NCBI GenBank assembly: GCA_963720545.1 | Contig: OY970399.1 | Span: 256,001-320,000, forward strand | Source: an uncultured Acidobacteriota bacterium | GTDB taxonomy: Bacteria > Acidobacteriota > Vicinamibacteria > Fen-336 | Reading direction: 5' to 3' | DNA: 64,000 nucleotides | In this document: positions 29,462-51,313 of the stretch, in pieces | Layout of the letters: the number at the start of each line of letters is the position of its first letter | How positions within the stretch are numbered: the first letter of the stretch is position 1 | Translations under genes and position numbers: made by a program | The notes under the pieces: model-generated | The model's input: the letters and a program-made list of their open reading frames with translations, nothing else | The model's database searches: none | Told to the model about the DNA's origin: nothing

Positions 29462-29482
29462 GCAGACAGTGTACGGCACGTC

Positions 29483-30697: not shown

Positions 30698-31480
30698 TTA
30701 CATGTACCCCAGGGCGCGCAGGCGCTGCATGACGCTTTCCTGCTCCTTGTCCTGCATGCGGCCGGCGCGCTCCGAAGTCTTGGTGGTGCGCAGGTCCTCG
30801 ATGATCTCCTCGATGGTCGACGCGTTCGAGTCGACGCCGACCGTGCACTGCGTGCAGCCGAGGCTGCGGTAGCGGATGCCGTCGCGCGCGAAGTACAACG
30901 GGTTCACCGGGATGTTCTCCTGCTGGATGTAGAGCCACATGTCGAGCTCGGTCCAGTGCAGAAGGGGATGGACGCGGGTGTGCGAGGCCTTCTCCTCCTG
31001 GGAGATGAAGTCCCAGATCTCGGCGGCCTGGTTCTTGTAGTCCCAGCGGAACTCCTCGTCGCGCGGCGAGAAGTAGCGCTCCTTGCCGCGGATGCCGTGC
31101 TCGTCGCGGCGGATCGAGACGAACAGCGCGTCGAACTTGCGCTCGTCGAGCAGCTTCTTCAGCGCGTCCGTCTTGTTGGCGCCGCAGCAGCGGATTCCCG
31201 AAATGTCGTCCTTGATGATGCTCGGCACCGCGAGGACGTCGAGGTTCCATTCCTTGCCGAGCCGCTCGCGCAGCTCGTACGTCTCGGGGAAGTCGATGCC
31301 GTTGTCGATGTGGATCAGGGGAAAGGGCACCTCGCCAAAAAACGCCTTGCGCGCCAGGGCGACGAGCACGGTCGAATCCTTGCCGGTGCTCCACAGGGCC
31401 GCGAGGTTCTTGAACTTCGCGTTCGTCTCCCTGATCACGTAGATGCTGCGTTCTTCCAGTTCCTTCAAATGCTCGCTCAT
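30698..31480 (-). CDS. cysD: Sulfate adenylyltransferase subunit 2
   Basis: WSTGKDS PP-loop, RRDE..R.KER.FSPR, RVHPLLHWTE, YRSLGC. Confidence 0.93.
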   Translation of the reverse strand: MSEHLKELEERSIYVIRETNAKFKNLAALWSTGKDSTVLVALARKAFFGEVPFPLIHIDNGIDFPETYELRERLGKEWNLDVLAVPSIIKDDISGIRCCGANKTDALKKLLDERKFDALFVSIRRDEHGIRGKERYFSPRDEEFRWDYKNQAAEIWDFISQEEKASHTRVHPLLHWTELDMWLYIQQENIPVNPLYFARDGIRYRSLGCTQCTVGVDSNASTIEEIIEDLRTTKTSERAGRMQDKEQESVMQRLRALGYM

Positions 31481-31548
31481 TGCTCTCCTCGTGCTTCTGG
31501 TATCAGGTCAGCTGTTATGAAAGCCGTACATCCCACAATAGAACGCAC

Positions 31549-33036
31549 TTACGATTCCTGCACGGGCCGCAGCCTGAAAGTGCCCGCCACACGGGCCAGC
31601 TCCCGGCGGCTGAAGGTGCCGAGAACGCCCAGAAGAATTACGTAGACGATGAGTCCGAAGAGGCCGCCGAGCGCCACGACCGGCAGCGGCTGGTCGCGCA
31701 CCAGGTAGCAGACGGCGCCGAAGCCGGCGCCGGCGATGAGCGGCCGCCACAGGAGCCCAAGGCTCGCGAGGCCGCCGCCCAGGCGGCCGATGACCACGAT
31801 GCCGGCGATGAACAAGGCGAACTCGGAGGCCACGCTCGCGATGGCCGCGCCGCGGAAGCCGAGGCTCGGGATGAGTGCGAGGTCGAGCGCCACGTTCACG
31901 AGCAAGGAGATCCCGACGCAGGCAGTGTACGTGCGCAGGTGGCCGAGGCCGGTGAAGAGATACCGGTAGATGGAGGTCGCAAGCAGCAGCAGCGGCACCG
32001 GCGCCAGGATCTCGAGGGCGGCGGATGCCGGCAGGTACGCAGCACCGAAGAACAGCTTGAGGATACGGTGCGACAGCGTCAGCAGCACGTAGGCCGCCGG
32101 ACAGCCGAGGACGTAGAGGATCTTGAGCCCGCGCGCGTGCAGGGCGAAGAGCTCCGAAGTGGAGCGGCGCGCGAGCCGCGAGAAGCCGGGGAAGAGCGGC
32201 AGCACCATGTTGTCGGCGAGCGGCTTCATCGCCTCGATGAACTTGTAGGCGATGCTGAACAGGCCGACCGCGATCGGGCCGCCCATGGCGGTGAGCAGCA
32301 GCCGGTCCACCTGCCAGGTGAGCCGGCGCAGCACCTCGCCGACGCCGAGCGGGAACGACTCGCGCAGCAGCCGCCAGGCGGCGGGCAGGTCGCGGCTGAG
32401 GCGGGTGACGCCGTGGCTGCGCGCCACCAGTATCCGGAAGTAGAGGAACAGCACGAAGTTCGCGAGCAGCACCGCGCCGAACACGCCGCGCAGGCCCCAC
32501 GCGGTGCGCACCACCACGGCCATCGCCGCCAGCATCACCAGCTTGTGCAGCGCAAAGCCGAGGATGTCGCTCGCCATCCGGTCCTGGGCACGCAGCACCG
32601 CGCTATAGCCGAGCCCGAAGAAGGTGGCGAGCACCGCCACCCCGGCAATGCAGAGCGAGTCGCGCACCTCCGTGCTCACCGGCATCGCGTACGCGGCCGC
32701 GACGATGCCCGCGAGGCTCACGACCGACATGATGACGAGCAGCGTGCGCGCGATCGACAGGCGCTCCTTGAGGGAGCCAGGATCGACCGCGAGGTCGCGC
32801 ACCACCACGTTGCGCACGCCCATGTCGGCGAGCAGCTGGAAGACGCCCGCCACTGCCATGATGAAGGTGTAGTTGCCGAAGCCCGCGACGCCGAGATAGC
32901 GCGCCGCCAGCACCACGGCGGCGAACTGCAGGAGCGCCCCGCCCACGTAGCCCACCGAACGCAGCACGGAGTTGCGGGCGATGCGCTCGCCGCTCTCCAT
33001 GGCGGTCCCGGGGACTTCGATGACCGGATCGCCCAA
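31549..33036 (-). CDS. Wzx-like polysaccharide/oligosaccharide flippase
   Basis: Multi-TM MOP-family protein; ARYLGVAGFG, DMG, D.LL...VGLF..A, LIPSLGFRGAAIAS. Confidence 0.88.
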   Translation of the reverse strand: MGDPVIEVPGTAMESGERIARNSVLRSVGYVGGALLQFAAVVLAARYLGVAGFGNYTFIMAVAGVFQLLADMGVRNVVVRDLAVDPGSLKERLSIARTLLVIMSVVSLAGIVAAAYAMPVSTEVRDSLCIAGVAVLATFFGLGYSAVLRAQDRMASDILGFALHKLVMLAAMAVVVRTAWGLRGVFGAVLLANFVLFLYFRILVARSHGVTRLSRDLPAAWRLLRESFPLGVGEVLRRLTWQVDRLLLTAMGGPIAVGLFSIAYKFIEAMKPLADNMVLPLFPGFSRLARRSTSELFALHARGLKILYVLGCPAAYVLLTLSHRILKLFFGAAYLPASAALEILAPVPLLLLATSIYRYLFTGLGHLRTYTACVGISLLVNVALDLALIPSLGFRGAAIASVASEFALFIAGIVVIGRLGGGLASLGLLWRPLIAGAGFGAVCYLVRDQPLPVVALGGLFGLIVYVILLGVLGTFSRRELARVAGTFRLRPVQES

Positions 33037-33042
33037 GACTCG

Positions 33043-34788
33043 CTACTCCACGTACCCGAGGTCCTGCAGGCGCTTGCGCACGGCTTCCTGCTCCTCGTCG
33101 CTGTACTCGCCGCCCTCGCCGAACTCCGCTGCCTGCTCCGGACCGCCGCCAGACTGCTGGATGCGCTCGCCGCGCACGAAGTCGTCACGGAAGAGCGACG
33201 TCAGCACCCGGCCATCCATGTCCTCGGGCACCGGCAGCCCGAGGGCATAGAGCACCGAAGGCGCTATGTCGACGATGTTGGGCGCGAGCGACGGGCCGTT
33301 CACGAGTCCCGGCTTCACGAGCGGTCCGTTCGCCACCAGGATGCCGTCGTCGCGGTGGTCGCCCGACTTGGCGCTCGCCCGTTCCTTGTCGTTCACCACC
33401 GCCACCAGCGGCCGTGGGTTGCCCGGCGAGGTGATGCCGAAGAGGTACGAATAGTCGCCATCGAGGTTCCACTCGGGGATGAGGTCGGGAAACCGGTCGA
33501 GGTGCGGCCCGCTGTAGAGCTCGTTGCGGCGATGCACCTTCTTGATGAGAGCCCCGCCGTGCACCGGGTCGCGCCACGTCAGGAGCCGCGCCGCGATCTC
33601 GTCGCACAGGCGGTCGTACTCGGCCCCGGCCTCGACCGTCCCCTCCGGGTCGCGCCCACGCACGTTGATCCAGATGGTGGGGTAGTACGGGGTCTCCTCG
33701 GAGTAGGCCGAGGTCCTGCTCCAGTCGAGGCCGGAGAAGCGCAGCTGCGACTCGACCTTGTGGCCGAGCTTGGTGCGACGGAACAGCATCTGGCGGTACT
33801 TGAGCGGGATGAGGTTCTTGCGCGCGATCTTCTTGGCGAAGGCGAGCGCCGCCACCCGTGTGCGCCGCCCCAGGCTGCGGTTGAAGTGCAGGAAGCCCTG
33901 CTCCTCGAGCCAGGCGTTGAGGCGCACGATCTTGTTGCCGTTGCCGGCGTGGCCGTGGTCGGACATCACGAAAACCGTGGTGTCGTCGCCGATCATGGCG
34001 CGCAGCTTGCCGATGTGGCCGTCGATGCGCTCGTAGATGCGCTGCACCGGGCTCACGCCGGTATAGGAGCGCGACGCCTCGTTGCCCATGGGCGACACCC
34101 TGTCGTGGAAGTGCCACAGGCGGTGCGAGATCGCGTCGGTCTCGCCGACCGTGATCATGAACAGGTCCCAGGGCTCCTTGCCGTAGAGGTACTGGGCGGT
34201 CTGCATCTTGCGGTCCACGGAGACGTACGCGGCTTCCACCACCTCGTCGGCCGACGCGCTCGCCGCATGGCCCTTGAGGCTCGGCGAAACCAGGTAGCCG
34301 CCGAGCTTTTCCATGAGCTCGGCATGCAGCTCCGGCGGGTACATACCGGTGGGCTCCGCCAGGCCGCCGGCGATTCCGGGAGTGTCAATGCCCGCGATCT
34401 GCACGCCGTTCAGCTTCTCCGGCGGGAAGCTCATCGGCACGCCGATCGCGCACACGCGCAAGCCGGCGTCGCTCGCGAGGCGCCACAGCGTCGTCGCCTT
34501 GCGGAAGCGTGCGTTCACGAACTCGACCTCGTAGCTGCCCGGCTTGCGCGCAGTGAAGTCGGGGACGCCGTGCTTGCCGGGGTTCTTGCCGGTCATGAAC
34601 GAGGTCCAGGCCTGCGGCGACATCGGCGGGTAGGTGGAGCGCAGGCGCGCGTGGGCGCCGCCCTTGACGAGCGCAGCAAGGTTTGGCAGCAGGCCCTGGT
34701 CGAAGAGCGGCTGCAGCACTTCCCAGTCGGTGCCGTCCAGCCCGAAGATGAAGACCCGCCGCTTTGCGGTTGACGTTGACACTCTCAC
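33043..34788 (-). CDS. Alkaline phosphatase superfamily protein with C-terminal RLxxLGY tail
   Basis: GLDG, PPMSPQAWTSFMTGKNPGKHG, TDAISH, SDHG, GDH; ends RKRLQDLGYVE. Confidence 0.88.
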   Translation of the reverse strand: MRVSTSTAKRRVFIFGLDGTDWEVLQPLFDQGLLPNLAALVKGGAHARLRSTYPPMSPQAWTSFMTGKNPGKHGVPDFTARKPGSYEVEFVNARFRKATTLWRLASDAGLRVCAIGVPMSFPPEKLNGVQIAGIDTPGIAGGLAEPTGMYPPELHAELMEKLGGYLVSPSLKGHAASASADEVVEAAYVSVDRKMQTAQYLYGKEPWDLFMITVGETDAISHRLWHFHDRVSPMGNEASRSYTGVSPVQRIYERIDGHIGKLRAMIGDDTTVFVMSDHGHAGNGNKIVRLNAWLEEQGFLHFNRSLGRRTRVAALAFAKKIARKNLIPLKYRQMLFRRTKLGHKVESQLRFSGLDWSRTSAYSEETPYYPTIWINVRGRDPEGTVEAGAEYDRLCDEIAARLLTWRDPVHGGALIKKVHRRNELYSGPHLDRFPDLIPEWNLDGDYSYLFGITSPGNPRPLVAVVNDKERASAKSGDHRDDGILVANGPLVKPGLVNGPSLAPNIVDIAPSVLYALGLPVPEDMDGRVLTSLFRDDFVRGERIQQSGGGPEQAAEFGEGGEYSDEEQEAVRKRLQDLGYVE

Positions 34789-34791
34789 TCC

Positions 34792-36504
34792 CTACTCGAT
34801 GTACCCGAGACCGCGAAGGCGCTCGGCGACCTGGTCAGATTCGTCCTCGGAGTACGTCCTCTCGGTCCGCTTGCTGGAGTCGCCGCTGCCTGAGTCCCGG
34901 CGGGCAGGCAAGCCGTGGCGCGCGGTGTGCTCTTCGGTGAACGCCTCGAGCAGGACGCGGCCGTCGATGTCCTCGGGGACCGGCTGTCCGAGCAGGTAGA
35001 GGAGAGTCGGGGTCACATCGGTGATCTCGGAGTCGAGCGTCAGGCCGCGGCGGAACGACTTGCCGTGGAAGAGATAGATGCCGTCCATCGCATGCACGCC
35101 GCTCCATTCGCCGGCCGCAATCGGCTGGCCGCCGCGGTACTCGACGGCGGCCCGGGAATCGGAGCTTTGCTTGGCGACGAAAGACACACCCTCCCACCAC
35201 GCGAGACTAAGGTCGGGCGCCTGCGCCAGTTGTGATCCGTGATACGCCTCTTCCTTGCGCAGCACCCTGGTGATGAGGCGCTGCCCGGTGACCGGATCCT
35301 TGAGTTCGTAGAGCTTCGCGGTGATCAGGTCGAGGAGCTCCTCGTACTCGGCGCCGTCCGCAACGATGCCGTCCGGATGCACGCCCTTGCGGTTGATCCA
35401 GATGCCGGGCGGAAAGGTCAGCACCTCGTAGCAGAAGGCGCGGGTGTTTTTCCAGTCGACGTCGGCGAAGCCGCCGTACTGCGATTCCCACTTGCGGCGC
35501 AGCGACGGGAAGCGGTCGGCGATGCGCGCCTTCCACTGCGGCGGCAGGCTCTCGCGCAGCAGCTTGTCGACCACCTTCATCGCCGGGCGCGCGGCGCCCG
35601 ACAGCGACTTGCCCGAGCGGCGCAGGAGGCCGAGGTCCTCGAGGTAGCGGTTGAGGTGCACCACCCGGCCGCTCGAAGCGTGGAAGCCGTGGTCCGACAT
35701 CAGCACCAGCGTGCCGTCCTCGGCGAGCCCGTTCATCAGCCGCGCGATTGCGTGGTCCATGCGCAGGTAGACGTCGAAGATCGCGTCCTTGTAGCGCGCC
35801 GCGCCTGCACCGTCGAACTGCGGATGGCTCTCGTCCATGTAGTGGTAGAAGAAGTGCTGCACCGTGTCGGTCGAGGTGAACACCACCATCGCGACGTCGG
35901 TGGGATGCGCGGCGAGCAGGTACTCGGTCATGCGCACGTAGTGATCGTCGGCTTCGCGAAGCGTCTCGATCACCGAGTCGCGGCGCTCGTCGGTCTTGAG
36001 GAAGCCGAGGTAGCGGATCTGCTTGCTGACGCGGTCGAACTTCGTAGCGAGCTCGGCGTAGAGCTCCGGCGGATGGGTGATCGCCGTGCTGCCTTCGGGC
36101 GAGTCCATCCCCGAGATCATGTAGCCGTTCACCGGGTCGGGCGGGTAGGTCATCGGCACGTTGATCGAGCCCACCCGCAAGGACGCGGCGCTCAGGATCT
36201 CCCACAGGGTGCGGCCGACGCGCGAACGCGCATTCGCGTAACGGATCTTGTAGGAACCCGGCTGCGGCTCGACGAAGTTGTAGAGGCCGTGCTTGCCGGG
36301 GTTCTTGCCGGTCATGAAGGATGTCCAGGCAGGGGCAGTGATCGGCGGGATGCTCGAGCGCAGCGCCCCGTGGACGCCCTCCTTCATCAGGCGGGCGAAG
36401 GTGGGCAGCCTCCCGGCTTCCGCCCAGGGCCGGATGTTGTCGAAGGTGGCACCATCGAGCCCGATGATGAGCACCTTTGGCTTATCGGAGGCGCTTGCGG
36501 TCAA
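34792..36504 (-). CDS. Alkaline phosphatase superfamily protein with C-terminal RLxxLGY tail
   Basis: GLDG, PPITAPAWTSFMTGKNPGKHG, TDTVQH, SDHG, GVH; ends ERLRGLGYIE; TTG start with AGGAG RBS. Confidence 0.88.
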   Translation of the reverse strand: MTASASDKPKVLIIGLDGATFDNIRPWAEAGRLPTFARLMKEGVHGALRSSIPPITAPAWTSFMTGKNPGKHGLYNFVEPQPGSYKIRYANARSRVGRTLWEILSAASLRVGSINVPMTYPPDPVNGYMISGMDSPEGSTAITHPPELYAELATKFDRVSKQIRYLGFLKTDERRDSVIETLREADDHYVRMTEYLLAAHPTDVAMVVFTSTDTVQHFFYHYMDESHPQFDGAGAARYKDAIFDVYLRMDHAIARLMNGLAEDGTLVLMSDHGFHASSGRVVHLNRYLEDLGLLRRSGKSLSGAARPAMKVVDKLLRESLPPQWKARIADRFPSLRRKWESQYGGFADVDWKNTRAFCYEVLTFPPGIWINRKGVHPDGIVADGAEYEELLDLITAKLYELKDPVTGQRLITRVLRKEEAYHGSQLAQAPDLSLAWWEGVSFVAKQSSDSRAAVEYRGGQPIAAGEWSGVHAMDGIYLFHGKSFRRGLTLDSEITDVTPTLLYLLGQPVPEDIDGRVLLEAFTEEHTARHGLPARRDSGSGDSSKRTERTYSEDESDQVAERLRGLGYIE

Positions 36505-36655
36505 AAGTTGATAACTCCTTAGTCACAATGACAGCATTGGAAAACAGCCGCAAGCAAATTCCTGGGTGGCCGCGGGGGGGAACTGAAAGCGCGGTGTAGG
36601 GAGCCTAACCCTCAGTCTTCCAACGTTCAAGCGGCCTCACAGCCTTTGGCATTTT

Positions 36656-37864
36656 TTACTGGACCATCCGTTCGTAAACCGCGACGGTCCGGTCCGTGAG
36701 AGCCGGCCACGCGTACTGCTCGTGAATCCACTGCCTGCCGTTTTTCGCGAGGCGCGCACCGCGGGCCCGGTCGACGAGCAGCAACGCGATCGCCTCGCCA
36801 AGCGCCCGCCAGTCGCCGTCCGGCGCCAGCAGCGCGTTCTCGTCGTGGCGCAGCCCCTTTGCCGAACCTTCGAAGACCGCCACCGGCGTGCCGGCCGCGA
36901 GGTAGTTGAGCAGCTTGACCGGAAAACCGGGGCACGATGGCCGCGGCACCACGGCGGCGTCGGCGGCGGCGAGCCACGGCGGAATCTCCGCGAACGACTC
37001 GCTCACGACGATCTCGAGTGCGTCCGCGATACCGAGCTCGCGCGCCTGGCGCTTCACGGCCTCGAGCTGCTCCTCCTTGACGGCGTTCGCCACCAGCAGC
37101 AGCCGCGTGTCCGGAACCCGCGCCCGCACCACGGTCATCGCCTGCAGCAGGTAGTCGATGCGCTGCAGGCCGTCGAGGCAGCCGGTGTAGATGACAAGGG
37201 GCTCGCTGCCGCCGTGCAGCCGCTGGCGCGCGGCGTCGCGATCGACGCGCTCGAAGATGCCGGGATCGATGCCGAGCGGAATGACGTGCAGCCGGTCCGC
37301 CGGCACGCCGCGCGCGCTCAGGAAGCGCGCCAGATCGTCGGAAATCGCGACCGTGACGTCGGGCAGCCGCGGCACGAACCAGTCGAGGAAGCGCGCCAGC
37401 GCGTTCGCCATCGGCCGCGGCAGGAAACCGTAAGAGCCGAGCTCGTCGCTCATCGTGTTGCACGCGTTGTAGAGGAGCGGCCGGCCGGTGAGCAGCTTGC
37501 CCAGCCAGCCGACGAGGGCGCCTTCGTAATTGTGGGCGTGGATGAGGTCGATGCGGTGCTTGCGGATGACGCGCCACAGGGTGAAGACCATCTGCAGGTC
37601 CTGGAGCGGCTTGGCCCATGTCGGACCGACCACCACCTTGCGGCCCAGCCCGAGATCGCCGATGCGGTGGATCGCGACGCCCGCGGGTTCCGGCCCCTCG
37701 CCGAAGTGGTAGGTGACGACGTGCACTTCATGGCCGCGCGCGGCGATAGCCGCAGCCATCTCGCGGATGCTGCCCGGTGTGCCATGGTTGGCGGGGAAGG
37801 GGCTCGCCACCGTCATCGCGATCCTGAGTGCGCGTGCGGCCGGTTCCCTTACCTCATGCCTCAT
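36656..37864 (-). CDS. Glycosyltransferase family 4 (GT-B)
   Basis: GHEVHVVT, HAHNYEG, IPLGID, GFPVKLLNYLAAGTPV. Confidence 0.9.
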   Translation of the reverse strand: MRHEVREPAARALRIAMTVASPFPANHGTPGSIREMAAAIAARGHEVHVVTYHFGEGPEPAGVAIHRIGDLGLGRKVVVGPTWAKPLQDLQMVFTLWRVIRKHRIDLIHAHNYEGALVGWLGKLLTGRPLLYNACNTMSDELGSYGFLPRPMANALARFLDWFVPRLPDVTVAISDDLARFLSARGVPADRLHVIPLGIDPGIFERVDRDAARQRLHGGSEPLVIYTGCLDGLQRIDYLLQAMTVVRARVPDTRLLLVANAVKEEQLEAVKRQARELGIADALEIVVSESFAEIPPWLAAADAAVVPRPSCPGFPVKLLNYLAAGTPVAVFEGSAKGLRHDENALLAPDGDWRALGEAIALLLVDRARGARLAKNGRQWIHEQYAWPALTDRTVAVYERMVQ

Positions 37865-38765
37865 CGACGACGTGCTTCGACAGCCGCTTTTCGCCCGTGG
37901 CCGGCGCGCCTGGGGGGGTCTCGCTGACCACCCAGCGCTGGCGGCGGTCCTCGAAGTTGATCGGCAGCCGCACCCGGCGGCGCTCCTCGAGGCGTTTCGC
38001 CGCGAACTCGCCGCGCGTCTCGTCCCGGCGGCGCTCGTGGTTCACCACCACCGGCTTCACGGTGGCGAGCTTGGCGCGCAGCCGCACCAGCTCGCGAAAC
38101 GCCTTGACGATGACGCGCAGGTTGGCGCCCGTCGACTTGCCAACGACGCGCGGAAAGTGCGTGACCGGAACTTCCTTGACGAGGAAGCCCTTGCGGATCA
38201 GCTGCACCAGGATGTCGGTGTTGACCATCGCGCCGACCGCGTCGATGCGCACCGAGTCGAACACCGAGGCGCGGAACATCTTGAAGGCGCAGTCGATGTC
38301 GCGCACCCGCAGGCCCAGAACCAGGCGCACCAGGACGTTCCAGCCGAGCGCGTTCACCTTGCGGTGCAGCCGGTCGTTGCGCTTCTCACGGTAGCCGATG
38401 ACGGCGTCGTACTGCTCGACCCAGAGGAGCAGCAGAGGCAGCTCGGCAAGGTGGAACTGCAGGTCCGAGTCGGAAAAGAAGATCAGGTTCTTGCTGGCCC
38501 GCTCGATACCCGACTTGAGGGCGGCGCCGTAGCCACGGTTGCCATTGCGGTGGTGGATCGGCACAACGCGTTTGTCGCTCGCGGCGATCGCGTCGACGAC
38601 GGCAGCGGTCTGGTCGCTGCTGCCGTCGTTGACGACGATGATCTCCCAGTCCTCGGTCAGCCCGCGCAGGCAGTCGTTCGCCTGCTGGATGGCCTGGGCT
38701 ACGTTTCCCTGCTCGTTGTAGGCAGGAAAGACGACGGAAATGCTCTGCCGACTGATGAGTGCCAT
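37854..38765 (-). CDS. Glycosyltransferase family 2 (polyprenyl-phosphate glycosyltransferase/DPM-synthase-like)
   Basis: PAYNE, VNDGSSD, NRGYGAALKSG, DSDLQ, DIDCAFK. Confidence 0.9.
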   Translation of the reverse strand: MALISRQSISVVFPAYNEQGNVAQAIQQANDCLRGLTEDWEIIVVNDGSSDQTAAVVDAIAASDKRVVPIHHRNGNRGYGAALKSGIERASKNLIFFSDSDLQFHLAELPLLLLWVEQYDAVIGYREKRNDRLHRKVNALGWNVLVRLVLGLRVRDIDCAFKMFRASVFDSVRIDAVGAMVNTDILVQLIRKGFLVKEVPVTHFPRVVGKSTGANLRVIVKAFRELVRLRAKLATVKPVVVNHERRRDETRGEFAAKRLEERRRVRLPINFEDRRQRWVVSETPPGAPATGEKRLSKHVVDEA

Positions 38766-38850
38766 GTTATGAACGCCCGCCTAGATCTGGAGGAATAAAG
38801 GTGCTGCAAATGACTAAACATCTGGAGTATCGGAAGTTGTCTCCAGCTTG

Positions 38851-40098: not shown

Positions 40099-40100
40099 CG

Positions 40101-43139: not shown

Positions 43140-44380
43140 GTGCCGCCGAGGCTGCGGAACATCCGGTAGTTCTGCGACGGGTCGAGGCGCCGCGCCGCCT
43201 CGTACGCGAGCCGCGCCTCCTCCAGCCGGTTGAGGCGCATGAAGCTGTCGCCGATGTTGCACTGCAGGTCGGCGCGGATGCGCCGGTCGCGGATCGCGGT
43301 GCTCGCAAAGCGGCCCATCGCGATGCCCTGTTCGTAGCGGCCGACGTCGAAGTAGGCGCGGCTCAGGTAGAACGCCGCCTGCGCCTGCTCGGGATCGAGC
43401 GCGAGGGCCCGCTCCCAGAGACCGATCGCCTGCGGCACGCGCTTCTCCTGGTACGCGGCGCGCGCCTTCTCGATGAGCGCCGAACTGAGTTCGCGGCGGG
43501 CCAGCGAGCGCAGCGGCTCGGATGCGTCCTGCGCCAGCGGCATGTAGACGCCGATGCCCTGGTCGACGTCGCCCATGGCGGTGGCGCGCGCGGCGACGTA
43601 GAAGCGCGCGCTCGGATCGTTGGCGCGGCCGAGGCGGTACTGCGCCTCGCCGATGCGCCGCCAGATCGGCTCGCTGTAGGCCACCTGCGCCGAGTCGCGC
43701 TGCGCGCTCGCATACTGGCGCAGCGCCGCGTCGAAGCGCGCGTAGGTCAGGTCGCGATCGGCGCGCGCCGCCGACAGTTCTCCCGCGAGCGGCTGGCGCA
43801 GCAGCGCCGCGGCGCCGAACAGCGAGACGCCGAGCGTGATTGCCGACCAGGCGCCGGCGGCGAACGGCCGCGCCCACACGCAGGCGAGGAGTGCCAAAAG
43901 GGCGCCGGAAAGGCACAGCCACCAGCCGCGGCCCATGAAGTAGACGCTCGCGGCGACGCGGTCCGTGAGGCCGTCGGTGACGAGGTCGTGCTCGAGCAAC
44001 GGGTCGGCGCCCTTGTTCCAGGGCAGGAACAAGTCGGAGAAGCGGATGATCGCCGAGTACTGGGCGTTGTCGTTGACGAGCGCCCACAGCCGCGCGTCGC
44101 GCAACGACAGGCTCGCGAGCACGAACACGCACAGTGCCAGCGCCAGGCTCGCGGCGACCGCCGTCAGTCGCACCAGGCCGAGCAGGCAGCAGGCACCCGC
44201 GACCACGGCGAGCAGCAAGGCAATCGTCAGGTGCGAGGCCGCGGCGCCGCCGCGCAGCGGCGACTCGATCCAGGCGAGAAAGGCCGACGCCGCAATCAGC
44301 AGCGAGCCGATGGTGCCGACGATGCGGGGAACCGGCCCGCGGCCGGGCTCAGCGGCGCGGGCGAGCGGCTCCGCCGCCAT
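43136..44380 (-). CDS. Membrane protein with C-terminal TPR repeats
   Basis: N-terminal TM helices; AIGLWERALALDP, ARLAYEAARRLDP. Confidence 0.75.
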   Translation of the reverse strand: MAAEPLARAAEPGRGPVPRIVGTIGSLLIAASAFLAWIESPLRGGAAASHLTIALLLAVVAGACCLLGLVRLTAVAASLALALCVFVLASLSLRDARLWALVNDNAQYSAIIRFSDLFLPWNKGADPLLEHDLVTDGLTDRVAASVYFMGRGWWLCLSGALLALLACVWARPFAAGAWSAITLGVSLFGAAALLRQPLAGELSAARADRDLTYARFDAALRQYASAQRDSAQVAYSEPIWRRIGEAQYRLGRANDPSARFYVAARATAMGDVDQGIGVYMPLAQDASEPLRSLARRELSSALIEKARAAYQEKRVPQAIGLWERALALDPEQAQAAFYLSRAYFDVGRYEQGIAMGRFASTAIRDRRIRADLQCNIGDSFMRLNRLEEARLAYEAARRLDPSQNYRMFRSLGGT

Positions 44381-45740
44381 CCCAGTCGCCGTTCAGGATC
44401 TGAAGCTGCGCCCCTGCATAGCGGCGCTCCCACGTGTTCTCGTTCTGCGCCAGCTGCAGTTCGAGCAGCGCGACCTCGGCGCGATTGACGACGTCGACTG
44501 AGGTGAGGCTCGCACCCGCCTGGCCGCGGGCACGCAGCAGCGCCTCGTTTGCCTGTTCCACCTGCGCCTCGAGGAGCTTCGCGTCCTCGCTCAGCTGCTG
44601 GTAGCGCGCGTGCACCTCGCGCAAGCCGCCTTCGAGCAGCAGCCGTTCGTTGCGCGCCTTCGCCTGCTCCTCGCGCTCACCGGCCGCCGCGACCGCGGCC
44701 TGCCGCGACGACAGCCCCGAGTCGAAAACCTTCCAGATGAGCTGGAACGAAACCGAGCCCTCGTCGGCGATCGGCGGGCGGTAGTCGTCGGCAAGCGCGT
44801 AGCGCGCCAGGATCGAGGCGGTGGGCAGGCGGTCCTTGCGCAGGCTCGCCGCCTCCTCGCGCTGCGACTGGGCGCTCAGCTCCGCCGACTTGACCGCCGG
44901 CGATTCGCCGATGCGGGCGAGCAGCTGCTCGATCGGCGGCGGCGGCGCCGGCGCCTGCGCCGGCTCGCGGATGTCGATGGGGCTCAGCATCGACATGCCG
45001 AGCGCGGTCGCGAACTCCTGTTCGGAGCTGCGCTGCGCGAGCTTCGCCTGGGCGACCGCGTGGCGCGCGGTCGCGGCTGCGACCTCGACGACGAGCGCAT
45101 CGCTGCGGGTGATGAGCTTGCGGTCGAGCTGCGCCTGCGCCATGCGCACGTCGGCCTCGCGGAACTGCACTGCCTTCTCCAGCAGCGGCACCTGGTGGCG
45201 GTACTTGAGGACCGCGAAGTAGGCGGTCGCGACGCGCTGCGCGACCTCGCGGCGGGTGACCCCTTCCGCGAGCGCCTTGGCGCCCGCGTCGAGCCGCGCG
45301 GCGTTGGTGTAGCGCGAACCGCCGAGGGTGAGCGCGCCGTGCGTGAACGCCGGGATCTCGAGCACAGCCTCGCCGGTGTAGTACGTGCCGCGCACGAAGC
45401 GGCGCACGCCGAACTGGTCGATGCCGCCGAGGCCGACGAACGGGCTGGTCGGCGAGCCGCGCAGGTAGCCGCTGCTGCCGCCGATGGTGAGCGACGGCGC
45501 CTTTTCCGCCGAGCGCGCGCCAATCGTCGCCTGCGCTGCTTCGGTGCGCGCCTTGGCCGCATCCACTTCGGGATGGCGCGTCAGCGCGTAGGTGATGCAG
45601 CCGGCCAGCTCGCAGGAGAAGTTGCCGGCGGGCGGGGCGGCGGGCGCTTTGGCCTGGGCATGCAGTTGCGGCGCCAGCGCCAGCGCGATGGCGGCGCTAG
45701 CGGCTGACCTCGCTCGGAGCGTTTGTCTCAGTGTCTTCAT
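44349..45740 (-). CDS. TolC-family outer membrane channel
   Basis: Signal peptide; ALTRHPEV, VATAYFAVL, two OEP-like halves (LPT...WKVFDSG). Confidence 0.85.
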   Translation of the reverse strand: MKTLRQTLRARSAASAAIALALAPQLHAQAKAPAAPPAGNFSCELAGCITYALTRHPEVDAAKARTEAAQATIGARSAEKAPSLTIGGSSGYLRGSPTSPFVGLGGIDQFGVRRFVRGTYYTGEAVLEIPAFTHGALTLGGSRYTNAARLDAGAKALAEGVTRREVAQRVATAYFAVLKYRHQVPLLEKAVQFREADVRMAQAQLDRKLITRSDALVVEVAAATARHAVAQAKLAQRSSEQEFATALGMSMLSPIDIREPAQAPAPPPPIEQLLARIGESPAVKSAELSAQSQREEAASLRKDRLPTASILARYALADDYRPPIADEGSVSFQLIWKVFDSGLSSRQAAVAAAGEREEQAKARNERLLLEGGLREVHARYQQLSEDAKLLEAQVEQANEALLRARGQAGASLTSVDVVNRAEVALLELQLAQNENTWERRYAGAQLQILNGDWDGGGAARPRR

Positions 45741-46920
45741 TTCCCAATCTCACCTTGTCCCCATCCCGAAGGTTGAGCTGTCCAACCGTGACGACGCGAT
45801 CCCCTTCGGCGAGGCCGTCGACGATGGCCGTCTGGCCGTCGCCCACACCCCCCACCTTGACACGCCTGAGCCTGGCCAGGCCTTTCTCGACGACGAACAC
45901 CGCGCTCTCCTGCGGACCGGCAGGATAGATGAGCGCAACGCTCGGCACCAGCAGCGCCGTGCTGCGCTCGCGCTGCAGGCGCACGAACGCCGTCAACCCC
46001 AATTTAAGGCGCAAACCGTTGTTTGCGAGCTCGACAAATGCCTGGAAGGTCTTGGTGTCGGCGCTGGTGGTGGGGTCGACGCGCACCACCTTGCCGGTGA
46101 ACTCTTCGTTGAGGAAGGCGCTGAAGGTCACCGTGGCCGGCTGGCCGATGCGGATGATTCCCAGCTGTTCCTCGGAGATCTGCGCGGCCACCAGCACCGG
46201 ATTCATGCGTCCGATGACCATCAGCTCGGCGCCGAGGCCCGGGGTTTCGCCGCGGTTCGTGAGCCGCTGGGTGACGACACCGGTGACCGGCGAGGCGATG
46301 GCACTGTAGGAAAGGGCGCGGCTGGCCTCGGCGCGCTTGGCCCTGGCCGCCTCGAGCGTGGCGGTCGCGGAGTCGAGGGCCTGCTGCGCCTTCTCGACCT
46401 CGGTGACCGCGAGGAAGCCCTGCTTGAAGACGCCCTCGACGCGGTCGCGCTGCACGGCCGCGCGCTCGCGCTCGGCCGAGGCGCGCACCACTTCGGCGGC
46501 GGCGCTGTCGGCAACGGCACGCAGCGACTCGGTCTCGAAGCGCACCAGCACCTGGCCCTGGCGCACCATGTCGCCGAGGTTGGCGCTGATGTCCGAGACG
46601 CGCGCCGAAATGCGCGAGGTCAGGTGCACGTAGTCGGCGGGCACGACTGCGCCGGTTGCGCCCAGCGACTCGTTCAGCTCGCCGCGACGCGCGGCCGTGA
46701 CCATGACCGGGATCGGGTTGCCGGTGCGGCGCGCCATCACCGCGTCGGTGCGCACCATGTGGGGCAGGACCTCCTGCCACAGGTAGCGAGCGCCGAGCGC
46801 ACCGCCTGCCACCAGAAGCAGGGCGCCACCCAGGAAGCCGGTAAGCCGGACAGGACTCATTAGAGGATGCGCGGCGCTTTGCTTCGAGGGCCCACGGCGA
46901 AGGAGCTTATCATCCGACAT
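45697..46920 (-). CDS. Periplasmic adaptor / membrane fusion protein (RND/MacA-type)
   Basis: N-terminal TM, lipoyl halves GDMVRQGQVL and IASPVTGVV, VPSVAL, GLAEGDRVVTVGQ. Confidence 0.9.
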   Translation of the reverse strand: MSDDKLLRRGPSKQSAAHPLMSPVRLTGFLGGALLLVAGGALGARYLWQEVLPHMVRTDAVMARRTGNPIPVMVTAARRGELNESLGATGAVVPADYVHLTSRISARVSDISANLGDMVRQGQVLVRFETESLRAVADSAAAEVVRASAERERAAVQRDRVEGVFKQGFLAVTEVEKAQQALDSATATLEAARAKRAEASRALSYSAIASPVTGVVTQRLTNRGETPGLGAELMVIGRMNPVLVAAQISEEQLGIIRIGQPATVTFSAFLNEEFTGKVVRVDPTTSADTKTFQAFVELANNGLRLKLGLTAFVRLQRERSTALLVPSVALIYPAGPQESAVFVVEKGLARLRRVKVGGVGDGQTAIVDGLAEGDRVVTVGQLNLRDGDKVRLGNEDTETNAPSEVSR

Positions 46921-47094
46921 TGCGCCCTTGCAGGCGCGAAGGTAATGTCGTAGCGGTCGTCACAACCGGTCGGTCGTGAGTGCGTTTACCCTCCGTAAAG
47001 CCCCGCGCCGACAACACTTGATTGCAACTGGGGCCTGATGTTCACGGATAGTGTCCATAGAGGCGGAGCCGCGTTCGACGCTGGGGAGGCACGT

Positions 47095-48399
47095 GTGTCC
47101 GGGGGTTTGTGGAGCACCATCACGCCGCACCTGCGGGTGCGCCACACGCGGAGCCCGGCGCCGCGCGTGGACGCGTGGGTACTCGACCCCCAGTTCCGCC
47201 AGGCGCTCGCGACCGTGCGCAGCCTGGGTGCCGCCGGCCGCTACGTCGGCACTGCCTGCTGCCTGCCGCAGGCCCGCTGGGCACCGGCGGCCGCATCCCG
47301 CTGGTGCGGCGCCAACGCTGTCCTTCCCGACTTCACGGTGGCGCCCGAGAACTATGTGGCGGCGCTCCTGCACCTGCTCGACGAACATCCGGCGCGGGTG
47401 CTGATCCCCGGGCACGACGGCTCGATCGCCACCATCCGCGCGCACCGCGCCGAGTTCGAGAAGCGCACCGTAGTTGCGCTGGCCTCCGAGGAGGCGCTCG
47501 CGATCGCGGGCGACAAGGTGCGCACCCTCGAGATCGCAAAGCGCCTCGGGATCGCGGTGCCGCGCAGCGTGCTGGTGCACGACACCAGCGAAGTGAAGGC
47601 CGCCGTCGAGCACCTCGATTGCCCGGTGGTGGTGAAGCCGACGAGCTCCTGGGCCACGAGCGGCTCGGTGGGCACGCGGCTCTTCAGCATGGGCGCTCGC
47701 AGCCTCGACGAGGCCACGCGCAAGGTGGACAGGATCGTCGCCAGCGGCGGCAGCGCCTTGCTGCAGGAGTGGCTGCCGGGACGACGGGACGCCGTCAGCC
47801 TGTTCGTGGCCAAGGGCGAAGTGACGGCGCGCTTCGCGCAGTCGTCGCGGCGCGAGTATCCGCCGCTCGGCGGCAGCTCGGTCTTCTGCGAGAGCCTGCC
47901 GCTGCAGTTGGACATCGTCGCACCGGCGGAGAAGCTGGTGCGCGAGATCGGCGCCGAGGGCTATTCGATGGTCGAGTTCCGCCGCGACCGCAAAGGCCTG
48001 CCCATCCTCATGGAGGTGAACGCACGGATGGCGGGCTCGGTGCAGCTGGCGCGCTCCTGCGGAGTCGACTTTCCGGCGATGACCTACGCGTGGGCGCTCG
48101 GCGAACCCCTGCCTGCGGCGCGCGCCTATCCCGTAGGCCGACGCCTGCGCTGGCTCGGCGGGGAAGCGCGCGCGCTGCGCGTCATCTTCCGCGACCACGG
48201 CCAGCTCGACGTGCCCGCGCGCGGCGCGGCCCTGGCGGCCGCGATCGGCGACTTCTTCCTGCGTCCGAGCCGCATGGACGTGATCGACCTGCGCGACCCG
48301 CGGCCGGCGATCGTCGAGGCGGGGTACATGCTGGACGGGGCGGTGCGCGTGCTGTTCGGCGCCGAGGTGCCGGGCGAGGCCGAGGGGACTGCGGCATGA
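47095..48399 (+). CDS. ATP-grasp domain protein (carboxylate-amine ligase-like)
   Basis: PVVVKP, LQEWLPG, MVEFR, MEVNAR; GGGGAGG RBS before GTG 47095. Confidence 0.85.
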   Translation: MSGGLWSTITPHLRVRHTRSPAPRVDAWVLDPQFRQALATVRSLGAAGRYVGTACCLPQARWAPAAASRWCGANAVLPDFTVAPENYVAALLHLLDEHPARVLIPGHDGSIATIRAHRAEFEKRTVVALASEEALAIAGDKVRTLEIAKRLGIAVPRSVLVHDTSEVKAAVEHLDCPVVVKPTSSWATSGSVGTRLFSMGARSLDEATRKVDRIVASGGSALLQEWLPGRRDAVSLFVAKGEVTARFAQSSRREYPPLGGSSVFCESLPLQLDIVAPAEKLVREIGAEGYSMVEFRRDRKGLPILMEVNARMAGSVQLARSCGVDFPAMTYAWALGEPLPAARAYPVGRRLRWLGGEARALRVIFRDHGQLDVPARGAALAAAIGDFFLRPSRMDVIDLRDPRPAIVEAGYMLDGAVRVLFGAEVPGEAEGTAA

Positions 48400-49625
48400 G
48401 CGGCGCCCTGGTGGACGTCGCCATCATCGGCGCCGGCCCTTACGGCATGTCGCTGTCCTCGCAGCTGAGCGCTGCGCGCATCGACCACCGCATCTTCGGC
48501 CTGCCGATGCAGACCTGGCGCGACATGCCGCCGGGAATGTTCCTGAAGTCCTTCGGCTTCGCGGTCACGCTCCCGAGCCCCTATCCCGAACGCAATCTGC
48601 CGAGCTTCTGCCGCGCCGAAGGCATCGAGCACTTCGAGCCGGTGCCGACCGCGGCGTTCGTCCGCTACGGCGAGCAGTTCCAGCGCGACCTGGTGCCGCA
48701 TCTCGAGAAGACCATGGTGCTGCGGCTGCTGCGCGACGGCGACTTCGTGCTGGAGCTGGAGAACGGCGAGAGCGTGCGCGCGCGCCGTGTGGCGATCGCG
48801 ACCGGGCTCAACCACCTCGCGTACGTTCCCGAGCAGCTCGCCGCGCTGCCGGCGGGGCGGGTGAGCCATCCGTCGCGCCGGCTCGACTACGCGCTCTATG
48901 CGGACCGCGACGTGGTGGTGGTGGGCCGCGGTCAGTCGGCGATCGAGGCCGCGGTGCTGCTGCACGAACACGGCGCGCGCGTGCGGCTCCTGGGGCGCAA
49001 GCGGCTCGACTGGAGCCAGCGCTTCGACCGCAACCGCTCGCTGCTGCGCCGGCTGATGCGGCCGAACTCGGTGGTGGGAGCCAGCTGGGTCAGCTACCTG
49101 CTGCAACACTATCCGATGCTCGGCTATCACATTCCCGAGCGGCTGCGCCTGTGGCTCACCCGCACCTACCTCGGGCCTGCCGGCGCCTGGTGGGTGCGCG
49201 ACCGCTTCGAGCACCGCGTGGCCTTCGACGACGACGTCGCCGCACTGGCGGCAGCGCCCGAAGGCGACCGCCTGCTCATGACGATCACCACGGCATCCGG
49301 CTCGCGCCGGCGTTTCACGGCCGACCATATCGTCTCCGGCACCGGTTATCGCTTCGAACTCGATCGCCTGCCGTACATGGACCCGGCGCTGCGCGGCTCC
49401 CTGCGGCGGATCGCGCTCGCGCCGGCGCTCGACCGCGACTGCCAGTCGTCGGTGCCCGGGCTCTACTTCATGGGTCCGCTCGGCGCACCGACTTTCGGAC
49501 CGATGCAGCGCTTCGTCGCCGGCTCGCGCTTCGCGACACCCACGGTCTTCCGGCACATCAAGGCCGCGCTTCGGGCAGCCGCCTCGGTCCCGGCCACGCG
49601 CCGCAGCGAGCGCGCCACCCAATGA
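48396..49625 (+). CDS. FAD/NAD(P)-dependent oxidoreductase (class B flavoprotein-like)
   Basis: IIGAGPYG, MPPGMFLKS, IATG, VVGRGQSAIE, GTGYR, SSVPGLYF; ATGA coupling. Confidence 0.85.
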   Translation: MSGALVDVAIIGAGPYGMSLSSQLSAARIDHRIFGLPMQTWRDMPPGMFLKSFGFAVTLPSPYPERNLPSFCRAEGIEHFEPVPTAAFVRYGEQFQRDLVPHLEKTMVLRLLRDGDFVLELENGESVRARRVAIATGLNHLAYVPEQLAALPAGRVSHPSRRLDYALYADRDVVVVGRGQSAIEAAVLLHEHGARVRLLGRKRLDWSQRFDRNRSLLRRLMRPNSVVGASWVSYLLQHYPMLGYHIPERLRLWLTRTYLGPAGAWWVRDRFEHRVAFDDDVAALAAAPEGDRLLMTITTASGSRRRFTADHIVSGTGYRFELDRLPYMDPALRGSLRRIALAPALDRDCQSSVPGLYFMGPLGAPTFGPMQRFVAGSRFATPTVFRHIKAALRAAASVPATRRSERATQ

Positions 49626-51313
49626 CCAAGCCGCCGCGGGTGCTGATCGTCGGGGTGGATGGCGCCACCTTCGACAACATCAGGCCGTGGGCCGAGGCGG
49701 GGCTGCTGCCGAACTTCAGGAAATTCCTCGACCAGGGCGCCGCGGGCACGCTCCGCTCCACCATCCCGCCGCTGACGGCGCCGGCGTGGACTTCGTTCAT
49801 GACCGGCAAGAACCCGGGCAAGCACGGGCTCTACAACTTCGTCGAGCGCAAGCAGGACAGCTACGAGATCCGCTACTCGAACGCGCGCACCCGCCATGCG
49901 AGCACGCTCTGGCAGATCCTCAGCGACGCCGCGCTGCGCGTCGGCGTGCTCAACGTGCCGATGACCTATCCGCCCGAGGCGGTCAACGGCTACATGATCT
50001 CCGGACTGGACGCGCCGGAGGACGGACCGGCCGCGGTCTATCCGCGTGAGCTCCACGCCGAACTGAAGGAGCGCTTCGGTCCGATCAACCGCCAGTACCG
50101 CTACCTCGGCAACCTCACCGACGACCACCGCAAGAGCGTCCTCGACACGCTCGAGGAGATCGACGGCCACTACCACCGCGTCGCCGACTACCTGCTCGAG
50201 GCGCACCCGGTGGACGTCGCGATGGTCGTGTGGACCTCGAGCGACACGGTGCAGCATTTTTTCTACCACTACCTCGACCGCTCGCACCCGCAGTACGACG
50301 CGGCGGGCGCCGAGCGCTACGGCGACGCGGTGCTGCGCACCCACCAGCGCATCGACGCCATCATCGGCGCGCTGGCGCAGCGGCTCGACGGCGACGGCAC
50401 GCTCATCGTCATGTCCGACCACGGCTTCCGCGGCACCAGCGGCAGGCTGTTGCGCCTCAACCGCTTCCTCGAGGAACTCGGGCTCATGAAGCGCAAGGCG
50501 CCGGCGACCCAGCCGGTGGCGCCGGTGTTCGGGGTCGTCGACCGGCTGCTGCGACGGCACCTCACCTCGCGCAACAAGGAGCGGCTCGCCGCCTGGTTCC
50601 CGCGCCTGCGCGCCAAATGGGAATCGCAGTCGCGCGGCCTGCACGGCGTCGACTGGGGCGCGACCAAGGCGTTCGCCAGCGACCTCGAGATCTTTCCGCC
50701 GCGCGTCTGGATCAACCAGCAGGGCGTCTTCCCCTCGGGAATCGTCGCCGCCGCCGACAAGGAGCCGCTCCTCGACTTCATCGTCGAGAAGCTCTACACG
50801 CTCAAGGACCCGCTCACCGGCAGGCAACTGATCGAGAAAGTCTGGCGCAAGGAAGAGATCTACCACGGCGACGAGCTCGATCGCGCGCCCGACCTGACCA
50901 TCGGCTGCTGGGACGGCATCAGCTTCGTCGGCGCCGGCACCCGCCGCGGCACCGACACCGTCTCGATCGTGAGCGGCGAGCCCGGCGCCGGCGAATGGAC
51001 CGGGGCGCACGCGATGCAGGGAATCGTGGGCTTCCTCGGCAAGGCGTTCCGCCCGACGGCCCTGCAGGGAGCCGACATCGTCGACGTGGTGCCGACAGTG
51101 CTGCACCTGCTCGGCCTCGAGATTCCCGAGGACATCGATGGCCGGGTCCTCGACGAGGCGTTCACCGACGAGTTTCGCCAGGTGCGCGGCGCTCCGCGGC
51201 GCGGCAGCCCCCGGGGCGGCGACGCCACCGCCGCGCGCGAGGCCGAAACCTACACGGACGACGAGAGCGAGAAGGTGGCCGAGCGCCTGCGCGGCCTCGG
51301 CTACACCGAGTAG
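49622..51313 (+). CDS. Alkaline phosphatase superfamily protein with C-terminal RLxxLGY tail (close paralog of 34792-36504)
   Basis: GVDG, PPLTAPAWTSFMTGKNPGKHG, SDTVQH, SDHG, GAH; ends ERLRGLGYTE. Confidence 0.88.
   Translation: MTKPPRVLIVGVDGATFDNIRPWAEAGLLPNFRKFLDQGAAGTLRSTIPPLTAPAWTSFMTGKNPGKHGLYNFVERKQDSYEIRYSNARTRHASTLWQILSDAALRVGVLNVPMTYPPEAVNGYMISGLDAPEDGPAAVYPRELHAELKERFGPINRQYRYLGNLTDDHRKSVLDTLEEIDGHYHRVADYLLEAHPVDVAMVVWTSSDTVQHFFYHYLDRSHPQYDAAGAERYGDAVLRTHQRIDAIIGALAQRLDGDGTLIVMSDHGFRGTSGRLLRLNRFLEELGLMKRKAPATQPVAPVFGVVDRLLRRHLTSRNKERLAAWFPRLRAKWESQSRGLHGVDWGATKAFASDLEIFPPRVWINQQGVFPSGIVAAADKEPLLDFIVEKLYTLKDPLTGRQLIEKVWRKEEIYHGDELDRAPDLTIGCWDGISFVGAGTRRGTDTVSIVSGEPGAGEWTGAHAMQGIVGFLGKAFRPTALQGADIVDVVPTVLHLLGLEIPEDIDGRVLDEAFTDEFRQVRGAPRRGSPRGGDATAAREAETYTDDESEKVAERLRGLGYTE

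Follow-up and report, generated by a model that had tools for sequence, protein, structure and literature searches.

The window analyzed here is a 64,000-nucleotide stretch of contig OY970399.1 from an uncultured Acidobacteriota bacterium. In it, a CysD-like protein (P0001) and three paralogous enzymes of the alkaline phosphatase (AP) superfamily (P0002, P0003 and P0004) were found to end in the same short tail, while a fourth paralog (P0005) has none. The tail is referred to as the LGY helix, a working name for an element that belongs to no curated family and is defined by the core [IV]xx[RK]L[RK]xLGY[LIVM], placed at a domain's end or close to it. It is most likely a portable amphipathic helix, closed by a glycine cap and then tyrosine and a hydrophobic residue, whose receptor would be the catalytic core of AP-superfamily enzymes. 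An earlier note on this DNA had offered two roles for the tail, a docking helix of a sulfate-activation complex and a swinging arm that carries sulfate; docking of proteins onto phosphatase-type enzymes is the most likely function, not a sulfate-carrying arm. It is tentatively proposed that AP-fold cores receive the helix in cis where the enzyme is itself tailed, and in trans where CysD presents it to a tail-less partner, a proposal regarded as possible and somewhat short of probable. The genes concerned are as follows.

30698..31480, minus strand: the CysD-like protein P0001, a short-type cysD (260 aa; PF01507), with the LGY tail as its last 15 codons (30701–30745)
29537..30697, minus strand: a CysN/EF-1alpha-like GTPase (386 aa; PF00009, PF03144) that abuts cysD and is without an adenosine 5'-phosphosulfate (APS) kinase domain
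34792..36504, minus strand: NPP-type paralog P0003 (570 aa; PF01663), with the tail helix at residues 553–565 (approximately 34795–34854)
33043..34788, minus strand: NPP-type paralog P0002 (581 aa; PF01663), with the LGY tail at approximately 33046–33105
49619..51313, plus strand: NPP-type paralog P0004 (564 aa from the methionine at 49619; PF01663), with the LGY tail at 51251–51310
24488..25807, plus strand: tail-less NPP-type paralog P0005 (439 aa; PF01663), the candidate receptor of the CysD tail
31549..33036, minus strand: a Wzx-type flippase (PF01943; below the cut-off of NF041871), between the tailed paralogs and cysD

On translation, P0001 was found to end in ...KEQESVMQRLRALGYM (also given as QESVMQRLRALGYM), P0002 in ...YSDEEQEAVRKRLQDLGYVE, P0003 in ...YSEDESDQVAERLRGLGYIE and P0004 in ...YTDDESEKVAERLRGLGYTE, the three tailed paralogs closing with RLQDLGYVE, RLRGLGYIE and RLRGLGYTE. 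This confirmed the distribution of tails that had been described in the earlier note, and the core fits all four. An acidic low-complexity linker precedes the tail in each of the three tailed paralogs, and P0005 (...PLDGVDLVG) stops directly after its catalytic domain. The CysD tail is identical to the AP tails at 8–9 of 14 residues, with a DNA identity of 26–31 of 42 positions. Recent gene conversion or copying between the cysD and AP tails was considered and rejected, as the DNA is no more similar than expected from the protein identity.

Within the 4.09-Mb genome such tails are more than a chance pattern. The end pattern L..[LIVM]GY.{0,3}$ was detected in 11 of 19,296 stop-to-stop open reading frames (ORFs) of at least 100 aa, and all 11 encode CysD or AP-superfamily proteins. 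A hidden Markov model (HMM) built from 138 tails of the family of the tailed paralogs was scored on 46,787 ORFs of the genome; it placed P0003 (32.8 bits), P0002 (29.3) and P0004 (28.7) as the top three and CysD (14.4) at rank seven, with the 16 best matches being AP proteins or CysD without exception.

The tail core is common to three unrelated families, namely the P0003 family (140 tails), short-type CysD (120) and small proteins resembling ribbon-helix-helix (RHH) regulators (63), which are described below. Counting back from the glycine, the leucines at −4 and −1, the glycine itself and the following tyrosine are 96–100% conserved in all three families, with the tyrosine at 100%. Position −8 is isoleucine or valine (leucine in 13% of the RHH-like tails) and position −5 is mostly arginine or lysine, giving seven common positions (I/V−8, R/K−5, L−4, R/K−3, L−1, G and Y) followed by a hydrophobic residue. 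The two leucines, the glycine and the tyrosine are conserved as strongly as catalytic residues, which upholds the suggestion in the earlier note that the tail is a functional module carried on unrelated folds. In an alignment of 136 P0003-family sequences, L563 and Y568 are invariant, as are the catalytic residues D17, D213, H217, D271 and H272, with T65 and H471 conserved at 90% or above; T65 is taken to be the nucleophile and the conserved Asp/His residues the metal ligands. A phrase search of the literature found no description of an LGY tail, its one match being unrelated, and among the titles listed on sulfate activation and sulfation in Micrarchaeota none treats it.

The tail is confined neither to the window locus nor to its four carriers. 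The family of the tailed paralogs gave 20,239 matches at an expectation value (E) of ≤0.001, and 138 of the 150 best representatives (34–71% identity) end in the LGY tail. Among the 48 AP-superfamily ORFs of this genome the core pattern places the helix at the C-terminus in 13, and a 14th C-terminal carrier (1245739–1247268), missed by the core pattern, was caught by the end pattern. In 15 AP-superfamily proteins the helix is internal, in most cases ahead of a TPR domain, with 20–541 residues beyond it; sulfatase-type examples lie at 2977680–2979830, 526599–529058 and 1001825–1004206. Twenty carriers were scanned with Pfam: 19 are of the sulfatase type (PF00884) and one matches PF01663, and 11 run on into TPR repeats. 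Even with E allowed to reach 1, no Pfam family covered the tail when a sulfatase carrier was scanned. These PF00884 carriers bear out the remark in the earlier note on similar tails of sulfatase-like proteins. Several carriers have lipoprotein-type N-termini by sequence reading and are predicted to be exported lipoproteins. Sulfatase-type carriers (e.g., 1245739–1247268 and 1766189–1769516) have ...PWTTPSH... in place of the C/S-x-P-x-R motif, and probably use threonine instead of a formylglycine cysteine, so that they would not be true sulfatases.

A cysD or GTPase gene was found in none of 80 metagenome loci of the P0003 family, and only three of approximately 29 AP-superfamily tail carriers of this genome lie near cysD; the AP tails are therefore a trait of their family, without enrichment in the vicinity of sulfate activation. 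The 80 loci were gathered with P0003 as sole query and cover 720 kb, with 26 loci of at least 10 kb; away from cysD, 75 of their 102 complete P0003-family ORFs carry the tail. The earlier note had named a lack of enrichment in sulfur-activation neighbourhoods as one of the results that would speak against its reading, and no such enrichment of AP tails was seen.

On the evidence of its sequence and model, P0001 is a CysD with the PP-loop ATP-pyrophosphatase fold and is predicted to have ATP sulfurylase activity. It passes the CysD model NF003587 (296.3 bits, cut-off 195) and falls below the narrower CysD models TIGR02039 (227.8 versus 396.6) and NF009214 (226.8 versus 413). Its model superposes on the solved CysD 1zun_A (Z-score 23.9, root mean square deviation (rmsd) 2.1, 190 residues, 46% identity), and the PP-loop STGKDST lies at residues 31–37. 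Short-type CysD proteins of 259–262 aa occur in Nitrospirota, Patescibacteria and above all Micrarchaeota, and all of the 120 best homologues (64–85% identity) end in [LI]GY[ML]. The tail of P0001 was aligned by HMMER to the end of the canonical 1ZUN CysD, ...GSMEEKKRQGYF, and the window CysD tail is therefore homologous to the ordinary CysD end. Judging from these alignments, the short-type tail is a hydrophobic remodelling of the canonical end (...KKREGYF), the window tail having leucine at −4 and −1 and valine at −8, unlike the canonical one. The 1zun_A chain has coordinates for only 204 residues and the aligned range stops at residue 211, so that the canonical C-terminal third is unmodelled even with CysN bound; the canonical CysD C-terminus is thus mobile. 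In the AlphaFold model of P0001 the last 20 residues are helical, with a predicted local distance difference test (pLDDT) score of 54–62, and their position in the monomer is of low confidence. The last 45 residues of P0001 hold no cysteine and hence no ECG[LI]H motif of the kind seen in reductases of APS and 3'-phosphoadenosine 5'-phosphosulfate (PAPS). In two papers citing the 1ZUN work, no word on the C-terminal tail of CysD was found.

A further point is that short-type CysD proteins have four invariant cysteines (C98, C99, C209 and C212; CC...CxxC in 75 aligned homologues), of which the 1ZUN CysD has one. C209 and C212 of P0001 align with the GCxxCT of the Mycobacterium tuberculosis APS reductase (7lhr), and the CC...CxxC arrangement resembles the Fe-S motif of APS reductases.

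CysD tail types were tabulated for 151 sampled genomes belonging to the same phylum as the window. The LGYM tail was present in two genomes only, this one (G000) and G029. The GTPase is kinase-less in the former and without a kinase in the frame scanned in the latter, and AP neighbours are present in both; G029 has the order cysD, GTPase, P0005-like gene, with a sulfatase-type gene just upstream. Six genomes have a CysD tail of the form ...L[RK][RK]DGYM, and in two of the four scanned the GTPase continues into an APS kinase. The canonical ...KK[RKQ][ED]GYF was found at 17 loci in 14 genomes. All three tail classes (LGYM, DGYM and EGYF; loci L229–L252) thus coexist in one phylum.

In the window, the minus-strand operon runs P0003, P0002, Wzx flippase, cysD and GTPase, with P0004 and P0005 outside it. 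Upstream, the same strand also encodes glycosyltransferases, and the flippase identifies the cysD operon as a locus for polysaccharide. This genome (completeness 94.8%) yielded no APS kinase (PF01583), and P0001 is its sole PF01507 protein, so that an APS or PAPS reductase of that family is also lacking. Sulfate activation here seems to dispense with both the usual kinase and an APS/PAPS reductase, and to take place inside a polysaccharide operon. The window GTPase scores below the curated cut-offs for CysN (TIGR02034, 238.6 versus 336.1) and EF-1alpha. EF-1alpha models give its highest scores, all under the curated cut-offs; Pfam recognizes the G domain and domain 2 only, and its P-loop, GHKDHGKST, is kept in 42 relatives.

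Eighty short-type cysD loci were fetched. A GTPase homologue follows cysD directly in 70 of the 75 untruncated loci and lies near it in three more. Forty-six AP-superfamily ORFs flank 37 of the 80 loci, and none of the 46 carries an LGY tail. An AP ORF lies within 5 kb of cysD in 23 of the 42 loci having 5 kb on both sides, and directly after the GTPase in 29 of the 60 with sufficient downstream DNA. Five of five Micrarchaeota genomes without an AP gene at the cysD locus encode tail-less AP proteins elsewhere. At the Nitrospirota loci L002 and L011 the AP neighbour is a close relative of P0005 (E 5.5e-165 and 7.1e-147), and close relatives of P0005 thus come directly after cysD and its GTPase in three other genomes (L002, L011 and G029). 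An LGY-type tail occurs in 0 of 119 members of the P0005 family. The tail is therefore distributed in a complementary manner, with 0 of 46 tailed AP ORFs beside cysD against 138 of 150 and 75 of 102 in the P0003 family away from it. The earlier note had suggested that the tail-less paralog could load or unload the tail, and a special place for this paralog gained ground both from these neighbourhoods and from the weak predicted docking of the CysD tail on P0005 described below. More distant P0005-like proteins (35–47% identity) are present in 30 other genomes of the phylum sample. A strict partnership with cysDN was rejected for them, as a GTPase lies within 1.5 kb in only 1 of 29 loci, that of G029; among the genomes concerned a full-length match to short-type CysD was likewise found in G029 alone.

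A third type of carrier was found at the same loci. In 66 of the 80, a protein of approximately 75 aa ending in ...KL[RK]ALGY[ILM] is encoded upstream of cysD at a distance of no more than a few hundred bases, either in the same orientation or divergently. From its sequence pattern the N-terminal half reads as an RHH DNA-binding domain, a call for which PF01402 gave weak matches in two of four proteins tested (E 0.014 and 0.16), all below the cut-off. The RHH-like tailed protein heads short-type cysD operons (among loci L003–L081). In the present genome the pattern for small free-standing LGY proteins was seen in 3 of 43,795 ORFs of 25–99 aa, none of them convincing, and an RHH-like partner was therefore not found there.

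Fusions were surveyed among 60 longer CysD relatives (E ≤0.001). P0429 consists of a Sulfatase domain (2–319) followed by PAPS_reduct (381–594), P0454 has Sulfatase and CysD in the same order, and in P0455 both domains appear by the precomputed Pfam list only. In P0438 the N-terminal domain was matched by hhalign to the profile of the P0005 family (probability 93%, E 3e-7) and the CysD part keeps the tail (RLRALGYM), while the CysD tail varies in the other AP–CysD fusions. In P0401 and P0410, CysD is fused to an APS-reductase-like (CysH) domain and the tails are degenerate (TQGFM and SGGYM). Many of the longer homologues have intein and LAGLIDADG endonuclease domains (PF14528 and PF14890) inserted in CysD, and further long ones are joined to CysH-like domains, to sulfite reductase, or to a GTPase plus APS kinase.

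The AlphaFold2 model of P0003 has a mean pLDDT of 93, with 66 in the linker and 86–90 in the tail helix, and from this model the helix is likely to pack on its own core. The core matches ENPP7 and Xac NPP (Z-score 27–28, rmsd 3.3, approximately 350 residues aligned). Among the matches listed, solved relatives cover only residues 3 to approximately 533 of P0003, and none of the 50 solved chains aligns past residue 535; the helix is therefore an add-on to the NPP-type core. A sequence search of the PDB with P0003 gave no usable relative (one match, E 0.0087). In a complex prediction, P0005 and the GTPase were supplied as receptor chains and CysD residues 216–260 as partner, together with three controls. 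The score was 0.56 (runs of 0.56, 0.54 and 0.60), against 0.00 for the best control, and was rated by the tool as weak support; in calibration, 116 of 157 solved complexes attained the mark, against 2 of 215 mismatched pairs. The runs share at least 39% of their contacts, and the partner has a pLDDT of at least 45. The control in which the GTPase was kept and P0005 replaced also gave 0.00. The prediction thus lends weak support to docking of the CysD tail on the tail-less P0005, with the GTPase as a less likely receptor.

Taken together, the following scheme is suggested. On the three tailed paralogs and some 26 other AP proteins, the helix would be the family's own add-on, tethered by the flexible linker and folding back on its own core or on a sister subunit, and would have nothing specific to do with sulfate activation. 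In short-type CysD, the mobile C-terminus would have been remodelled into the same helix, which would insert in trans into AP-type partners that have no tail of their own, the P0005 family for example. By such docking an APS synthase that is GTP-driven and kinase-less would be held next to an AP-type enzyme decorating a glycan with APS as donor. That an AP-type enzyme takes APS from a tethered CysD is plausible, given a genome without APS kinase or reductase and the precedent of Halobacterium, in which sulfatase-fold proteins are described as acting as glycan sulfotransferases (PMC11980604). Docking in a sulfate-activation complex, as set out in the earlier note, is thus retained in part: the contexts fit a docking helix, but the AP tails are unlinked to sulfate activation.

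Several observations weigh against this scheme. The high pLDDT of the P0003 helix is no proof that it packs on the core. Complex scores of 0.60 or less were reached by only 18 of the 157 solved complexes, together with both of the mismatches that passed, and by the tool's own calibration such a score is wrong in more cases than it is right, except where the guess already had good odds. The pass may also just rebuild the usual arrangement of AP core plus helix, a likeness which is nevertheless what the docking hypothesis itself proposes. The complementarity fails at the window locus, where three tailed AP paralogs stand beside a tailed CysD. For distant P0005-like proteins a link to cysDN is seldom seen (1 of 29 loci). 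That the AP genes linked to cysD lack the tail may be a matter of archaeal lineage and not of partnership, as kin are not independent. Finally, docking of a repressor on an AP enzyme, as the RHH-like carriers would imply, is less obvious than docking on CysD.

An alternative held to be unlikely, if far from negligible, is that the tails are independent, ordinary Gly-capped C-terminal helices that pack on their own proteins, the likeness between CysD and AP tails being convergence with no common partner. L-x-x-L-G-aromatic is a classic Gly-capped helix end (the Schellman capping pattern), and convergence would suit a tail that is a fixed trait within each family, without DNA-level copying in the window, with P0003-family tails unlinked to cysD (0 of 80 loci) and with the helix internal in 15 AP proteins. 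However, the seven common positions, above all the basic residues at −5 and −3 and the I/V at −8, exceed what the capping rule needs. Nor would convergence be expected to make the hydrophobic CysD tail track AP neighbours and a kinase-less GTPase, to put the same tail, in 66 of 80 loci, on an RHH-like protein encoded next to cysD, or to leave the CysD tail not confidently packed on its own core.

A common hub, for example a TPR scaffold, or tail-to-tail bundling could instead gather all LGY proteins, which would be the general form of the earlier docking idea. A motif on many proteins does look like homotypic or hub systems, the helix runs into a TPR domain in 11 of the 20 Pfam-scanned carriers, Pfam also finds TPR proteins encoded in the window, and tailed AP enzymes and a tailed CysD share one operon. 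Tail-to-tail pairing does not predict that AP genes adjacent to cysD are tail-less (0 of 46), however, and the weak docking signal was lost on replacing P0005 alone. No hub came to light, no test for one having been run; this explanation is considered rather improbable.

The C-terminal arm of PAPS/APS reductases closes over the active site, and the CysD tail might likewise be a lid on its own active site, with the RHH-like or AP tails plugging an open CysD by mimicry. This is consistent with a CysD fold like that of APS reductases (Z-score 20–21), with the C-terminal third being unmodelled in 1zun_A and the tail invariant, and with the RHH-like tailed proteins at the head of cysD operons. It seems distinctly unlikely, as it leaves unexplained the tails on some 26 AP proteins far from cysD, the predicted lipoproteins and the internal copies, and gives no account of a hydrophobic face that appears only with AP neighbours. 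The swinging carrier arm, on which the invariant tyrosine would be sulfated at CysD and hand its sulfo group to an AP active site, might draw on a tyrosine 100% conserved in three families, a flexible linker, a genome without APS kinase and related reductases that carry sulfite on a C-terminal cysteine, but the tyrosine apart it found no support and is highly improbable, the helix occurring on lipoproteins predicted to be periplasmic and at internal sites ahead of TPR domains, with no APS at hand, on DNA-binding-type proteins and on an AP family unlinked to cysD, and being absent from the AP partners of cysD. A docking helix suits the internal, lipoprotein and RHH-like contexts better than does a tyrosine that everywhere carries sulfate.

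If the docking proposal is correct, the helix offers a handle on thousands of functionally unassigned "sulfatase" or "alkaline phosphatase family" proteins in polysaccharide loci. It would also explain how a sulfate-activating enzyme can work in genomes without APS kinase and APS reductase, including the tiny ones of Micrarchaeota and Patescibacteria, and a sulfation route independent of PAPS could be recognized in sequence by this simple marker, the LGY helix. A bolder version, put forward as speculation and with little expectation that all of it holds, is that the helix is a part of the AP fold that can come away and has turned general adaptor: CysD and RHH-like regulators would use it to plug into tail-less AP enzymes, glycans would be sulfated from APS without PAPS or classical sulfotransferases, and the repressor would sense free enzyme by tail mimicry. 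Whatever the receptor, a motif for which no description was found is conserved to a catalytic grade.

Among the remaining features of the window, all four paralogs match PF01663 well above the cut-off of 23 bits (131.7–162 bits). The ORF of P0004 extends from 49151 to 51313, but the start is most likely the methionine at 49619, since the 156 residues ahead of it are Arg-rich and without a family match. A predicted lipoprotein of 362 aa (28391–29479; lipoprotein-type N-terminus, no Pfam or NCBIfam match) occupies the place of the P0005-like gene of relatives, and proteins with a PKD domain and of GH42-like type come next.

Among known systems, a precedent for AP-type enzymes beside sulfate activation is Agl30/Agl31 of Halobacterium salinarum, sulfatase-fold N-glycan sulfotransferases that add sulfate and belong to a glycosylation cluster, a likeness drawn by description and not by sequence (PMC11980604). 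In the text of that article 'PAPS' and 'APS' have 0 occurrences each and no tail is mentioned, and C-terminally tagged Agl30/Agl31 are described as having retained activity (PMC11980604). Xac NPP and ENPP1-7 have the core fold and the conserved threonine and metal-ligand set in common with the paralogs, and none of their solved chains listed covers the linker or helix of P0003.

The canonical CysD end (...SMExKKREGYF; Pseudomonas syringae CysD-CysN, 1ZUN) is similar to the window tail in its homologous position, its GY-hydrophobic end and its mobility. It differs in having K and E/Q where the window protein has L−4 and L−1, and no I/V at −8; short-type CysD is also shorter by approximately 30 residues and has the four extra invariant cysteines. 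The PAPS/APS reductases 4bwv and 2goy belong to the same fold family as CysD (Z-score 20–21) and have a flexible C-terminal segment acting at a distance. The C-terminal arm of such reductases carries the ECG[LI]H motif, whereas the window CysD tail has no cysteine, and any chemistry of its tyrosine would differ. In the CysH–CysD fusions P0401 and P0410, ECGIH is kept on the CysH part while the tail is degenerate on the CysD part. In the CysE-CysK cysteine synthase complex, the C-terminal tail of CysE docks in CysK and regulators copy that tail. The CysE tail is extended and enters the active site, whereas the window tail would be a capped helix, and sequences and folds are unrelated; the likeness lies in the use of the C-terminal tail of a sulfur-pathway enzyme as a docking peptide for a second enzyme.

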